From the sequence record MG748547: a DNA stretch of 64,000 nt, one strand, 5' to 3'. The notes beneath the pieces were generated by a model. That model had not been told where the DNA came from. It ran no database searches and saw only the letters and a program-made list of their open reading frames with translations. Below are positions 11,346-56,024 of the stretch, in pieces. The translations under genes and the position numbers were made by a program. Numbering within the stretch: position 1 is the stretch's first letter; each line of letters starts with the position of its first letter. Origin of the DNA: Escherichia phage EP75.

Positions 11346-11354
11346 CTATTTAGG
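11346..11354 (-). promoter_or_regulatory. late-promoter-like motif CCTAAATAG
   Basis: Resembles T4 late promoter TATAAATA; upstream of baseplate operon start at 11309. Confidence 0.4.
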
Positions 11355-11362
11355 ACTAGAAT

Positions 11363-12103
11363 ATGGCTATGTATCTCGTATACCAAATTACCAATCTGAT
11401 AAACAATAAAATATATGTTGGGGTTCATAAAGGAACTCCAGATGATGGTTATATGGGTTCTGGCCGAGTTATAACAAGAGCGATATTGAAATATGGTGTT
11501 GAGAATTTTCGCAAAGATATATTGAAAGTTTGTAAAACATCAGAAGAAATGTATGAAGAAGAATTCAGGATAGTGAATCAAGAATTTATAGATAGAGATG
11601 ACACATATAATTTAACATGCGGTGGGCGTGGTTCATTTACGCACATAAATTCGGATCCATTAATCAGGGCCAACGCTTCGGAGAAGGCTCTCAAAACCCT
11701 AAGTTTAAAATCAAAAGACGAATTACAAAGAATTTACAAATCTAGGGGATTTCCTGGAGAAAGAAATTTTTGGTTTGGTAAAAACAGGTCCGGTGAAAAT
11801 AACTCAAGATTTGGCTATGTAATGGAACAAGAAACAAAGGACAAAATAAGAAATTCCAACAAGAAAAGAGTGGAATCCGGCCTCGTGGATTATTCTAATT
11901 GCAAAGGACCAATCACAAAAGAAGGGAAGAACGCAATATCCCAAGCGAACTCCAGAGAATTCAAATTTGTTAATCCAGAAGGAAATTTGGTCACAGTTAT
12001 CAACCTTTCCAAATTCTGTAAAGAAAATGAATTGAGCGAAGGATCTATGAGACATGTCCATAACGGCCGAAACATACAACATAAAGGTTGGAGGAAAGCA
12101 TAA
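11363..12103 (+). CDS. GIY-YIG homing endonuclease (Seg-like)
   Basis: N-terminal 'YLVYQITNL...KIYVGV' GIY-YIG motif; basic C-terminal DNA-binding region; sits between divergent structural genes. Confidence 0.75.
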   Translation: MAMYLVYQITNLINNKIYVGVHKGTPDDGYMGSGRVITRAILKYGVENFRKDILKVCKTSEEMYEEEFRIVNQEFIDRDDTYNLTCGGRGSFTHINSDPLIRANASEKALKTLSLKSKDELQRIYKSRGFPGERNFWFGKNRSGENNSRFGYVMEQETKDKIRNSNKKRVESGLVDYSNCKGPITKEGKNAISQANSREFKFVNPEGNLVTVINLSKFCKENELSEGSMRHVHNGRNIQHKGWRKA

Positions 12104-12723
12104 TGGCATCGTATTTACAAGGAAAATTTATTCCCAACAATCCTCAAAAATATGTCGGAGACGTAAAAGATATTGTGTTTCGATCCTCTTTAGAATTGGT
12201 TGCATTCAAATTCTGTGACATGAATCCTGCTATCGTGAAGTGGGGTTCGGAAACTTGTGTAATCCCTTACATATCTCCGGTTGATGGCCGCGCCCATCGT
12301 TATTTCATGGATTTGAAGGTTTGGACTCGTCGGCAGGATTCCGATGAATTACAAATTACTCTTATTGAAATAAAACCCAAAGACCAGATTAAAGAACCTC
12401 GCAAAACTAAAACGATGAAGGAATCAACATTCAATAATTCAATGCGCACTTGGTTGGTAAATCAGGCAAAGTGGACAGCAACTAAAGAACATTGTGCAAA
12501 GGTAGGTTGGAAATTCATTATCTGGACAGAAGAACATTTGGTGCCAGGTGAAGACCCAGAAGTTAAAAAACAATTTGCTCTTCGTTCTAAGAAAAAGCGC
12601 GAAGTCGAAATGGAAGATCGACGCCGCGCTCAAAGGATTAATGCGTTGAAAGAGCAAATGAAGAAGGAAACTGCTAATAAACAACCAACGCAATCGGAAG
12701 ATGATGGTTTGTTATTACCCTGA
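12103..12723 (+). CDS. head completion protein (T4 gp4-like)
   Basis: ATG at 12103 with GGAGGAAAG ribosome-binding site; 'YVGDVKDIVFRSSLE...VIPYISPVDG' resembles gp4 as recalled. Confidence 0.65.
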   Translation: MASYLQGKFIPNNPQKYVGDVKDIVFRSSLELVAFKFCDMNPAIVKWGSETCVIPYISPVDGRAHRYFMDLKVWTRRQDSDELQITLIEIKPKDQIKEPRKTKTMKESTFNNSMRTWLVNQAKWTATKEHCAKVGWKFIIWTEEHLVPGEDPEVKKQFALRSKKKREVEMEDRRRAQRINALKEQMKKETANKQPTQSEDDGLLLP

Positions 12724-12933
12724 TTTCCTTGGATGTCCAGGGGCAAAGCAAGTTTGTTTGTCCCTGCATATCATCCATCCATCAGCACGGGCTTGTCTAG
12801 CACAGTCTCCCCAAGATTCACCAGCATAAGACTTCATCCCACATCTGGGGTGATGTTCTTGCCAAGCCCAATTACAAGATTTGCATTCAACACACTCACA
12901 ATACAAATCGACGGTGTATCCTGCAGTAATCAT
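12715..12933 (-). CDS. small Cys-rich protein (72 aa)
   Basis: Nine cysteines; co-oriented with neighbouring minus-strand genes. Confidence 0.35.
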   Translation of the reverse strand: MITAGYTVDLYCECVECKSCNWAWQEHHPRCGMKSYAGESWGDCARQARADGWMICRDKQTCFAPGHPRKSG

Positions 12934-52732: not shown

Positions 52733-55131
52733 CAAAATTGGCGGGGTCTGAGGCTTTTCACCTCACCTGCTGGATTGGCCTCCAGCTGTTCTCTCTGGGG
52801 ACTCGCTGTCCGGACAGCTATCCCTTAAACTATCGCCCCATATTCAATTGCACCAGAGCATAATTACCGCTATACGACCACCCTCTCGGGCAGGTTGGTT
52901 CTGACCCAACGTCTCTCTGATGCGTTTTATTGTGTGCCCAATCAAGGACTGTCAACCTTTTATCCCGTTTGTGCATGATCAGTTCATGCATGCCTCTTGT
53001 GCGCCTCACGGCAACGCGCTTCTGTAGGTCATCGACTTGCACTGTAGTCTCACCACAGGCGTTTATTTTTCCAGGGCTTTCCACTTACAAGTCTTAACCA
53101 GATCGGGATACGGGCTTGTAAGATCGGATTGGACACAACTTTGATGGCTCTAGGACTAAAGATCCCGCGTCACCCATAGACTTGGTTTATAAAATCTAGA
53201 GCCATCAAAGTTGCAACCAATGTCGCAACTCGCACTTCAGCGTCTTCGTCTCGCTTCAGCACTTGTCCTCTACGTTCGGACCAAACGAGGCTGGCCGACA
53301 GAAACATAACACCACTCATCACTAGAGCGAGGATGTGGTTGATAGCCACGATGTTACGTCTCTGTCGTAGAGTGATCACACTTGTCAGGATGATCACTGT
53401 TTTGCGAACTTGAAAATACTGCGCCTGTCTCGGGTTTCCCCTTAGTTCGGCCTCTCATTGTTCGTCTGGTCAGGGAGCTACCCTTGATGACCAGCTTATT
53501 TTGAGATCTTCGCCAGCACCCACTAGTGTCTAGAATATGTAGGTGTCGAGGTCTGCAAGGCATTGCCCTATTTCATACAACGCTCTCTCAAGTGCGCAAA
53601 TCGAAGTTCTCTGGGCTTAACAGGTTCGACCCAACATGTTGTATATCGCCTAACTTGCTCATGGGACGGACACATCTGTGTACAGACCTTGAGGGTTAAA
53701 AGATATACCCAGAGAACTTCGATTTGCGTAGCCCTTCACTTGCCAAAGATCAGGGCTAATAACAAGACTTCGCTCACATCTTTGAGGACACTGCGCGGGA
53801 CTCGAACCCGCCATGAACATCTGGCGCCAAATGCTTCCACCTGTCAATGTCCTCAAAGATGTGGAGCCGTTTTAGGGAGTCGAACCCAAATGATTGGCCA
53901 GCGCTGACCTCACATCCCATCTGACTTAGGCAACCCACCTCTGCTACTCAGGAGCTTATCCCCTTTGGACAGTCAGATATAACGGCTTTGGGATTGGAGG
54001 AAGGACTCGAACCTTCTCATGTACGCTCCTGATTTCTCAGAAGTAGCCTGCTCCCATCGACCTATTAAGTACACGCTCCGCTCATTGTTCGGCGGGAGCT
54101 TATTAATCACACCCTCCCACCTATTGTTAGTGCGCCGAATTTTGTTATGAGGAATCGGAAGACCTCACTGACTTATAGGCTATTACGCCGCCATCAGAAC
54201 TTCGGAATCATTAGCAGTTATTTGCTTGGTCAGTTTCTAAAAACCCGCAAAGTCACGCACAACGAAAACGAAAACCTGTTTGAGTCCTAAACCTACCTGT
54301 CTTGGTCTCACATCGATATGAGTGGCCAGGACTCAAACAGCTTGCCGTTCAGTGAGTTAACTATACTTTGTAACCCGTTATTGATAAAACCTTTTATTTT
54401 GTTGGCGAGGGTGCGGAATCGAACCACACTTCTGAGCGCTACCCCGTGTCACCAATGCACCACCTCACCATCGATTTGCCGGAACTTACGCATCCGGCCT
54501 CGTCCTGTCGGTGTTCTTCTGAATCCGGGAAGATCAGCAGGAACTATGAATCAAGTTAATTCAACCAACAGGAATCCTCTTGTTGCCCTTTGACGCAACA
54601 TTATGAACCCTCTATGAAGACTCATAATGTTGTCGGCGTGATGGAGATTAGCGCCCCCGACCTCCCCTTATATGTTGGTGTCGACTTGCCAACAGGGTGC
54701 TCTCTGATTCTGAGCTAATCACGCTACAACAGGGAGTTTCGTTCTCCGACGGTCAAGTGCGTCCACTGACACCAGCGAGGTGGCTATTACGCCTCTATTC
54801 ACACAAGCCCCTGAGACTAGGGGTTAACTGGTTTTGGGCTGCAAACCCGACTCCCACTGTGTTATTTCCCTCATGTTTAATACTTTACCGCAGCCCAGCT
54901 AATTTGAAAAGTCCTCTCCCCTTTGAGCTACACTGCCCACAGCAGTGCGGACGAACCTTCACTCAAAACCGGATGCGCCGAAGTGGGCAACTGTTTACCG
55001 GACTGATCGGGTAGACCCAGGAGAGAGCAGGTAATCCCGATCAGGAGGATGAGGAGTAACATCATGTAAAACATAGTGTTCCCTCCCTTCCATGCAACTA
55101 ACTTTACTACAATTATTTATTGAATAAAGCG

Positions 55132-55701
55132 TTATTTTAACACTTCTAACTTCACAACACGACGCAGAAGGTAAACATATTCGCCAGCAGCTTCATGCGT
55201 CATATAATGGGTAGAAGGTGTGGAATGATTGTTCTGGGTTTCTTTTAATCCAACACGTTCTGCCCAACCATTAATAGAGTTCCCATAGAAACCGATAATC
55301 GCGCCAAAATAAATGCGCTGGCTTTCTGGCTCTAAAACATAGTTGACAGTGAAGCAAATATCAGAACGAATAGACTCCAGTTTCATACCAACACGACCTT
55401 CGGAGAATTCGTTACGAACATATAAATGACGGAAACGATCGCGCCGCGCTTGTGATGATTCTTCCAATTCTTGTCGGAGTGAAGAAGTTACGTCAATATT
55501 AAATGAAAATGTTGGATTCTGTAAATCGGAACGGGCCAACTCTAACGCAGATTCAACAACGCGACGGAAATTGATACTTTTACCTGTCAGGCGTTTCACT
55601 TCATCTGTGATTGTTCCAAAAGGGATTTTCGTGGCGCGTTCCCCTTCGTATTTTGCCAATAAAGGAATAATGTGTTTCATGATTGCTGTGTTAATGTGCA
55701 T
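55132..55701 (-). CDS. hypothetical protein (189 aa)
   Basis: GGTGAGG ribosome-binding site; lies between tRNA region and baseplate genes. Confidence 0.5.
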   Translation of the reverse strand: MHINTAIMKHIIPLLAKYEGERATKIPFGTITDEVKRLTGKSINFRRVVESALELARSDLQNPTFSFNIDVTSSLRQELEESSQARRDRFRHLYVRNEFSEGRVGMKLESIRSDICFTVNYVLEPESQRIYFGAIIGFYGNSINGWAERVGLKETQNNHSTPSTHYMTHEAAGEYVYLLRRVVKLEVLK

Positions 55702-56016
55702 TCCGGAGCCTCACCGAATTGATTAAATGTCTCCATTATTATATTGGAGATACGTTTATTGAATATAAACACAGGAATGGCCAATAAAATAATGACAGTG
55801 ATTATTAATAGGTAAAAACTACTTTTCTACAACATCAAGAAACTGTATCTTAACGCGGTGCCCTTCGAGTTGTGAGTGTTAACGAACAACGAGAAGCAGC
55901 CTCCATGGCTGCGGAATGGGACTGCCTGTCAAGGCGGTGTTACGAGCGAGGGCTTTAGCCCCCTCGCGAGTATATTCGAATAAATTAACGCGCGAGAGCG
56001 TTTTGATTCCCTTTGG

Positions 56017-56024
56017 CTAAATAT
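56017..56024 (+). promoter_or_regulatory. late-promoter-like motif CTAAATAT
   Basis: 40 nt upstream of gp6-like start. Confidence 0.45.

Follow-up and report, generated by a model that had tools for sequence, protein, structure and literature searches.

CTAAATA boxes in a Kuttervirus genome segment as probable T4-type late promoters, with predicted leader hairpins at some of the sites

In the 64-kb stretch of DNA analyzed here (the window; record MG748547, Escherichia phage EP75), a genome segment of a ViI-like Salmonella phage of the genus Kuttervirus, family Ackermannviridae, the word CTAAATA stands a few tens of nucleotides (nt) upstream of baseplate and tailspike genes and of several small genes, which raises the question of what it does there. 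The first-pass annotation had proposed it as the counterpart of the T4 late promoter. This proposal was supported: TAAATA is shared with T4, the element is limited to a -10 box, the operons behind it encode virion and lysis functions, and homologs of gp55, gp33 and gp45 are found in the related Salmonella phage Se-J. The best explanation, which we consider very probable, is that (C/A)TAAATA is the -10-only late promoter of this Kuttervirus, with a second layer formed by a leader hairpin at about a third of the sites.

The motif is not new. Its original description, together with that of a companion motif, was reportedly given by Adriaenssens et al. (2012, Arch Virol 157:2035) for the 'Viunalikevirus' genus. 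CTAAATAcCcc and TTCAAT[N14]TATAAT are listed as two unique regulatory motifs of Ackermannviridae/'Viunalikevirus' (PMC7283392). In 2011 the late promoter of the ViI-like group was still called unidentified (PMC3184105), and a 2024 review of the Ackermannviridae does not mention promoters, late genes or transcriptomes. The window has the same sequence as the published 11-mer, CTAAATACCCC, as well as the companion motif. The late-promoter reading of this family hallmark would be a natural one by analogy with T4, and since the motif was already published, the finding as given is ordinary. The additions, namely a broader core, a list of 11 window sites and a putative hairpin gate, appear modest.

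Raw counts were uninformative, as CTAAATA occurs nine times in the window, against 6.95 +/- 2.67 expected, with no enrichment. Counts alone would sink the finding, and position and orientation tests were used instead. A copy was scored as positive when the end of the box lay 15-45 nt upstream of a start on the same strand, a zone that covers 2.2% of the two-strand positions. Seven of the nine CTAAATA copies were positive (binomial P 7.5e-11), as were 11 of the 22 TAAATA copies (binomial P 2.6e-13), all at distances of 26-40 nt. In the upstream regions of the window (-50 to -11), TAAATA was found 11 times, compared with 2.55 +/- 1.54 in dinucleotide shuffles, and CTAAATA seven times, compared with 0.46 +/- 0.70; the respective reverse complements were found twice and not at all. 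The motif enumeration suggested in the first-pass annotation found only two CTAAATA copies inside coding sequence (39941-39947 and 56811-56817, both on the minus strand). The idea that the boxes are chance matches in A/T-rich intergenic DNA can point to the raw count, which is at expectation, but it is hardly credible against position and orientation P values of 1e-11 to 1e-13, with which the shuffle and reverse-complement controls agree, and against the genome-wide ranking and the conservation across seven genera described below. An origin by chance or composition was rejected on the position, orientation and shuffle tests.

The whole genome of Se-J, the closest complete relative, and its annotation were used to place the start codons of the window and as a genome-wide control. 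Window positions 47000-60000 are about 96% identical to Se-J, and several hundred further relatives match. An unbiased scan of all k-mers in the 60 nt upstream of the 215 Se-J genes showed TAAATA as the top 6-mer (30 genes against 2.6 expected, P 1e-21), outranking every Shine-Dalgarno (SD) word, and CTAAATA as the top 7-mer (17 genes against 0.83 expected). Other forms are also concentrated upstream of genes, with nine of the 13 ATAAATA copies and six of the seven copies of the exact T4 octamer TATAAATA located there. The 29-30 Se-J sites lie 21-42 nt before the starts (median 30). The genes behind them encode the tail tube cap, gp6, three tailspikes/fibers, sheath, tube, head-closure and baseplate hub proteins, and further the endolysin, the DNA end protector, a RuvC-like resolvase and several small unknown proteins.

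Among the 29 Se-J sites profiled, in which TAAATA itself is invariant by construction, the preceding base is C in 17 and A in eight. This preference at -1 and a C/U-rich stretch at +1 to +4 are the only signals outside TAAATA; no -35 element was found, and the information content stays near zero throughout the stretch from -45 to -2 counted from the box. A genome has about 30 sites of the apparent working core, (C/A)TAAATA. Orthologous genes retain the box in Agtrevirus, Limestonevirus, Taipeivirus, IME250, Miltonvirus (phiMAM1), Nezavisimistyvirus (Bue1) and Tedavirus (phiA8-29), and the sequence upstream of it diverges freely between these genera.

All the box sites named in the first-pass annotation were recovered in place. 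Four more were found (27831, 28270, 37963 and 52651, all on the minus strand), giving a window total of 11 (Table 1); one-mismatch variants upstream of other window genes were not convincing. Genes that follow a box encode the tail tube cap (PHROG baseplate tail tube cap, E 7e-117), gp6 and two tailspikes, and some boxes stand before operons that include genes for an Ig-domain, a virion-structural or a needle-knob protein. The tail-tube-cap box is the head of a four-gene baseplate/tail operon reaching down to 6435. The box of the DUF7207 gene, which is followed by the gene for the Ig-domain structural protein, lies in the 3' end of the preceding gene, and that of the DUF7440 gene, within the upstream coding sequence, is the weakest candidate. 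The exact T4 octamer heads an operon whose last gene encodes a virion structural protein, and the box of the 77-aa gene, at the head of the 77-aa/tail-needle-knob operon, comes directly after a terminator (51482-51504). A small terminator-like stem (55987-56002) precedes the gp6 box, and the TAA of the acidic-protein box doubles as the stop codon of the gene for the ADP-ribosyltransferase-like (ART-like) protein. The window contains three copies of the full 11-mer CTAAATACCCC (48515-48525 on the minus strand, 59879-59889 and 63004-63014 on the plus strand), each copy ending 22-33 nt before an ATG.

Table 1. Boxes and predicted leader hairpins in the window. Distances run from the final A of each box to the start ATG. 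Energies are predicted minimum free energies; z scores and shuffle counts refer to 200 dinucleotide shuffles. ORF, open reading frame.
Feature	Sequence	Positions	Strand	Distance to ATG (nt)	Gene behind	Energy (kcal/mol)	z	Shuffles
Box	CTAAATA CTAAATAG	11347-11353	-	37	tail tube cap (gp48-like), 10341-11309
Box	TAAATA (TTAAATA)	27831-27836	-	33	DUF7207, 27405-27797; box kept in Se-J
Box	TAAATA (GTAAATA)	28270-28275	-	26	DUF7440, 27830-28243; box kept in Se-J
Box	exact T4 TATAAATA	37963-37970	-	30	55-aa gene, 37765-37932
Box	CTAAATA CTAAATAT	48040-48046	-	32	152-aa acidic protein, 47549-48007
Box	CTAAATA CTAAATAC (full CTAAATACCCC)	48519-48525	-	26	149-aa ART-like, 48043-48492
Box	TAATAAATAG	51461-51470	-	26	77-aa gene, 51201-51434
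Box	CTAAATA	52651-52657	-	36	47-aa ORF, 52471-52614
Box	CTAAATA CTAAATAT	56017-56023	+	40	gp6 (baseplate wedge), 56064-57845
Box	CTAAATA CTAAATAC (CTAAATACCCC)	59879-59885	+	37	tailspike 1, 59923-62964
Box	CTAAATA CTAAATAC (CTAAATACCCC)	63004-63010	+	33	tailspike 2, from 63044
Hairpin	UCCUUGCUU directly past box / AAGUGAGGA (SD)	37941-37962	-		55-aa gene	-9.5	-3.2	1/200
Hairpin	AAUACCCCAUAC / GUGUGGGGUAU (SD GGGG)	48495-48521	-		ART-like	-18.1	-4.9	0/200
Hairpin, weak		at box 51461-51470	-		77-aa gene	-9.0	-2.6	2/200
Hairpin	AUCUUCA.CACC / GGUG.UGGAGAU (SD GGAG)	56023-56059	+		gp6	-17.1	-3.6	0/200
Hairpin	14-bp stem AAUACCCCUAGAUG / CAUUUAGGGGUAUU	59882-59918	+		tailspike 1	-19.1	-5.3	0/200
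Hairpin	AAUACCCCAUA / UAUGGGGUAUU	63007-63040	+		tailspike 2	-19.6	-3.7	0/200

The T4 late promoter consists of an 8-bp TATA box and has no -35 element, with transcription starting about one helical turn further downstream (PMC2988020); its sequence, TATAAATA, occupies -13 to -6 and is used with gp55, gp33 and gp45 (PMC2988020, PMC7892883). The Kuttervirus element resembles it in that TAAATA corresponds to T4 positions -11 to -6, in being a -10 element only, and in its location just upstream of virion and lysis genes. All three factors are encoded by the phage group, as homologs have been reported for the ViI-like phages CBA120, ViI and AG3 (PMC3184105). In Se-J they were located at 124945-125739 (gp55; PHROG late sigma, E 1.6e-53), 150564-150806 (gp33; Pfam Trans_coact, E 4.6e-19) and 101807-102475 (gp45; PHROG, E 4.8e-65).

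Three adenines of the T4 open complex, A(-12), A(-9) and A(-8), are flipped by gp55 and enter pockets that Y97, N13/H95 and T99 line; A(-12) stacks on Y97, and the pocket residues that read the box include R57, F86 and T99 (PMC7892883). The -9 and -8 positions are invariant A in the Se-J sites, as in T4. In contrast, -12 is A in T4 and here C in 17 of 29 sites and A in eight, and the bases past the box are C/U-rich here and A/T-rich in T4. Pairwise BLASTP of the Se-J homolog against T4 gp55, in a sequence that agrees with 12 residue numbers quoted in two papers, gave 20% identity (E 2e-5). In the alignment R57, F86 and T99 are identical, while Y97 is replaced by W, H95 by F and L54 by M; a phmmer search of the homolog against the PDB returned no match. 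The Se-J protein has 264 aa, about 80 more than T4 gp55 (185 aa), the extra residues being mostly past the family-profile region (residues 13-208). These replacements are only suggestive, but they could mean that the reading of TAAATA is conserved and the -12 pocket altered in the Se-J homolog.

A different reading would take the box for a host sigma-70 or a phage middle-type -10, serving genes that are not specifically late. TAAATA is A/T-rich and one or two changes away from TATAAT, the timing of the box genes is drawn from T4 by analogy, and a few downstream genes are not obviously structural (the Se-J DNA helicase gp134, the 47-aa ORF and gp179). However, the boxes lack a -35 or TTCAAT partner, which the sigma-70-like promoters of the same phage have, virion and lysis functions account for the overwhelming majority of the genes behind the boxes, the exact T4 late octamer is used interchangeably with the box, and the gp55, gp33 and gp45 homologs are present in Se-J, which makes this reading very improbable. 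For the T4-type late promoter, the proposed mechanism is that the host RNA polymerase core with a gp55-type late sigma, aided by a gp33-type co-activator and a gp45-type sliding clamp, would read the box on the non-template strand and start about 6 nt past its last A, producing leaders of roughly 17-35 nt. The genes driven in this way would be virion and lysis genes and a few accessory ones. The gp55 dependence, late timing, start site and translational block of these boxes would all follow the T4 example.

Detailed inspection of the leaders revealed that the complement of CTAAATACCCC comes after it, immediately ahead of the ATG, as in tailspike 1 (AAATACCCCTAGATG...CATTTAGGGGTATT). The 5' arm of the predicted hairpin begins inside the box, while the only SD-like sequence of the leader, GGGG or GGAG, lies in the 3' arm, whose end is 3-10 nt away from the ATG; in the strong hairpins the predicted probability of an unpaired SD is 0.00-0.12. 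In the window no strong hairpin was predicted for the acidic-protein leader, and its homologs in phiMAM1 and Bue1 have one. The same design was found in Se-J at gp129, the endolysin and the RuvC-like resolvase, in the latter case if translation starts at the second ATG. A late RNA beginning at about the 6th nt past the box, a start site taken from the T4 rule, would lack the 5' arm, and its predicted energy falls to between -1.0 and -5.9 kcal/mol (-1.0 for the ART-like leader, started at the 6th nt).

The hairpin layer was also compared across Se-J genes. The promoter-proximal segment of each leader pairs much better with its own SD region than with the SD regions of the other 28 genes (mean -6.9 against -4.1 kcal/mol, permutation P < 5e-5). 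Predicted SD accessibility on read-through RNA is lower for TAAATA genes (0.38) than for other genes (0.53, P 5e-4), and it rises from 0.33 on read-through RNA to 0.47 on the predicted late RNA (P 9e-4), a result that holds for starts at the 4th to 8th nt. In other genera the hairpins persist with altered stems and loops, for example ACCCCAUUAGG/CCUGAUGGGGUU at the Bue1 acidic-protein gene and CCCUCAAGA/UCUUGAGGG in phiA8-29. The ART-like hairpin is kept with a variable loop, and the gp6 hairpin is kept in all seven lineages listed above for the box, with three pair types at one stem position. Across gp6 orthologs, 95% of cells are paired, against 29-47% with the partner slid. MAFFT mis-registers the phiMAM1 and phiA8-29 leaders.

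According to the proposed model, this second layer would act in the window at the ART-like gene, gp6 and both tailspikes, and weakly at the genes of 55 and 77 aa. The 5' arm would be formed by the final bases of the box together with the C/U-rich bases that follow, and would pair with the SD-bearing 3' arm. RNA entering from upstream would fold the hairpin and be blocked for translation, whereas RNA started at the box, without the 5' arm, would be translated. The window's clearest case for such a gate would be the ART-like gene, where the 39-nt gap behind the PLP-enzyme-like (pyridoxal-phosphate) gene holds only the box and the hairpin, with no terminator. Tentatively, and with somewhat more doubt than confidence, we propose that the C-rich tail is the anti-SD arm of a family-wide, transcript-selective translation gate and not a part of promoter specificity, and that Ackermannviridae may routinely embed a gene's own promoter in an SD-hiding hairpin.

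The box and its hairpin could instead be a promoter-plus-terminator cassette whose stem-loop mainly halts transcription arriving from upstream, or a conserved recombination linker between tailspike modules, with no translation gating. Such elements would resemble the PeSLs (promoter-early stem-loops) of RB49/phi1, reportedly described by Arbiol et al. in 2010. The sigma-70-like TTCAAT[N14]TATAAT promoters of the same phage often lie in GC stems with a T run behind them, in some relatives GGGGTATTTTCA comes after the stem, and the cassettes of tailspike 2 and tailspike 3 are nearly the same sequence, both within a genus and from one genus to another, although their flanks have diverged. However, a terminator scan of the window called none of the leader hairpins, and a hairpin/T-tract discriminant scored them from -27 to +0.3, compared with +28 to +38 for three true window terminators. 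Separate good terminators stand just upstream of boxes, at 51482-51504 and, in Se-J, before tailspike 2, and the only SD always lies in the 3' arm, close to the ATG. The cassette or linker reading is therefore unlikely, and an intrinsic-terminator role for the window leader hairpins was rejected on the terminator scan and the discriminant.

Several observations weigh against a gp55-read late promoter with a translation gate. With regard to the promoter, the window sites 27831 and 28270 are both inside coding sequence and less certain, the gp55, gp33 and gp45 homologs are located outside the 64-kb window (they were found in the 96%-identical Se-J), and transcript 5' ends or time courses for any Ackermannviridae phage were not found in the literature searched. 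Since C predominates at the position of the A(-12) that is flipped in T4, recognition cannot be identical to that of T4. In Se-J an exact box is missing from the major capsid and portal genes, and only the one-mismatch forms CTAAGTA and CTAATTA are present (ACTAAGTA lies 40 nt upstream of the capsid start and ACTAATTA lies 25 nt upstream of the portal start, around 91285 and 87420, each just after a terminator), which suggests that variation may be tolerated at the 4th and 5th positions of TAAATA. With regard to the hairpins, gp6 covariation is weak, with a single two-sided pair change and a score reached by 19 of 500 shuffles, the tailspike 1 stem has no covariation because its outer 10 bp never vary, and the two arms have a further constraint in serving as promoter and as SD. 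For these reasons the argument for a structure rests mainly on cross-gene arm matching and on variable loops between fixed arms. A block of early read-through is also less obviously needed at gp6 and the tailspikes, since terminators or late genes precede these.

The gate has a clear precedent. In the long early transcripts of T4 e, soc, 49 and I-TevI the ribosome-binding site is covered by a helix, whereas the RNA made late, from a promoter within the helix's 5' strand, can be translated; segB and mobE of Aeh1 also have an inhibitory leader hairpin with an embedded late promoter (PMC3014915, PMC2988022). The Kuttervirus leaders are alike in holding the SD in a stable predicted stem with the late box in its 5' strand, and the hairpin is also predicted in Se-J for the endolysin and Holliday-junction resolvase genes, which correspond in function to e and 49. 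They differ in their predicted far wider use, at seven to ten genes per genome, including gp6, all the tailspikes and the ART-like virion protein, and in the inclusion of the box itself in the predicted stem (AAUA pairs with UAUU). A further difference is that the non-late PLP-enzyme-like gene has the same design around a sigma-70-like -10.

The leader of that gene (49858-49926, minus strand) reads CTCCTGTAGA-tacgcTATGATaagccaatg-TCTACAGGAG. Its loop contains the sigma-70-like -10, and the SD (AGGAG) belongs to the 3' arm. The gene itself (48532-49857) is non-late and lies downstream of a late operon, and the Se-J gp13 leader is similar.

The C/U-rich 5' arm of the predicted hairpins would explain the 'cCcc' tail of the published consensus. 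The published 11-mer has about five sites per genome, which are the hairpin-bearing subset, in contrast to the about 30 sites of the (C/A)TAAATA core. The tail is best explained as the anti-SD arm of this subset, with (C/A)TAAATA as the general promoter; in the literature searched no statement was found that the C-rich tail belongs to a leader hairpin and not to every promoter.

The first-pass annotation had also placed the ART-like and acidic proteins in the late class, which is backed by the virion proteins of LIMEstone1 and by structural annotations of the ART homolog. Mass spectrometry of LIMEstone1 virions identified the adjacent ORF173 and ORF174, of 17.3 and 16.6 kDa, as 'unknown structural proteins'. 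ORF174 is the homolog of the acidic protein, according to an annotation note in phiMAM1, and from its adjacent position and its size we infer that ORF173 is the ART-like homolog. The window ART-like protein matches Pfam ART-PolyVal (E 1.6e-10), and its homolog is annotated as a structural protein in five records, in one of which it is 100% identical to the window protein. An IMG/VR search with the ART-like protein returned mostly near-identical phages, and a gp6 profile search mostly distant T4-like phages outside the family. The virion and annotation data suggest a packaged ADP-ribosyltransferase-like protein, as is T4 Alt, which is injected with the DNA.

Exact copies of the companion motif TTCAAT[N14]TATAAT were found at 5306-5331 (plus strand), 42337-42362 and 55738-55763 (both minus strand), and one-mismatch copies at 15415, 26348, 34596, 37720, 46293 and 50646. 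With up to two mismatches there were 28 hits against 11.3 expected, a number that none of 100 shuffles reached. In several copies, such as TTCAATAAAGGGGGATAGGGTATTATTGCCCTATCCTCTTTTTT at 34596 (minus strand), a GC stem with a T run behind it carries the -10 hexamer in its loop. These look like compact promoter-plus-terminator cassettes, reminiscent of the RB49/phi1 PeSLs.

An Rfam scan of the window for known RNA families found three tRNAs only. The CCA end of tRNA-Met (52658-52733, minus strand) abuts the CTAAATA of the 47-aa ORF, and this ORF overlaps tRNA-Asn (52397-52472, minus strand) by 2 nt. A unit of box, hairpin and small ORF is present in several copies in the tRNA region of related phages. 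In addition, a conserved hydrophobic ORF of 48 aa (MFYMMLLLILL...; start 55074, minus strand) in the region 54928-55119 has a TAAATA at 55114-55119, 39 nt upstream, within TTCAATAAATAA. The ORF is annotated in YX22 and pSal-SNUABM-02 and unannotated in Se-J; the promoter status of this TAAATA is doubtful because YX22 has TAAAGA there. A similar sequence, CTTTATTCAATAAATA, was found at 46269-46284 (minus strand), but no gene follows there.

Compared with sequenced Kutterviruses, the window is mosaic. Identity to Se-J is 99% at 46.4-52 kb and 94% from 54 kb on, while identity to phage bering is 100% over the ART-like region and about 90% at gp6. A gene for a Seg-like GIY-YIG homing endonuclease of 246 aa (11363-12103, plus strand; Pfam SegE_GIY-YIG, GIY-YIG and NUMOD3), not found in Se-J, sits between the tail-tube-cap gene and a gp4-like head-completion gene (12103-12723, with a TnsA-like N domain). 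Its start is 10 nt from the minus-strand late box.

Current understanding is not overturned by these results, as the motif and the mechanism each have clear precedents. A (C/A)TAAATA located 21-42 nt before a start would mark late transcription units across the Ackermannviridae, and a late, virion-associated class can be assigned on this basis to small unknown genes, among them the 55-, 77- and 47-aa ORFs as well as the ART-like and acidic-protein genes. A late ADP-ribosyltransferase-like protein found in virions recalls T4 Alt, and with C in place of the flipped A at -12 the family would be a natural variant of gp55 specificity. Phages of this family are widely used for biocontrol and tailspike engineering; in tailspike swaps the box and the hairpin should be kept together, and if the gate is real, read-through expression would be blocked.

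The T4 lysozyme-type translational gate is apparently used much more broadly in this family. If this holds true, each such gene would be translated only from transcripts of its own promoter, the gp55 homolog would accept C where T4 gp55 flips an adenine, and the temporal classes would be insulated from each other in a mosaic genome with early and late genes interleaved on one strand.

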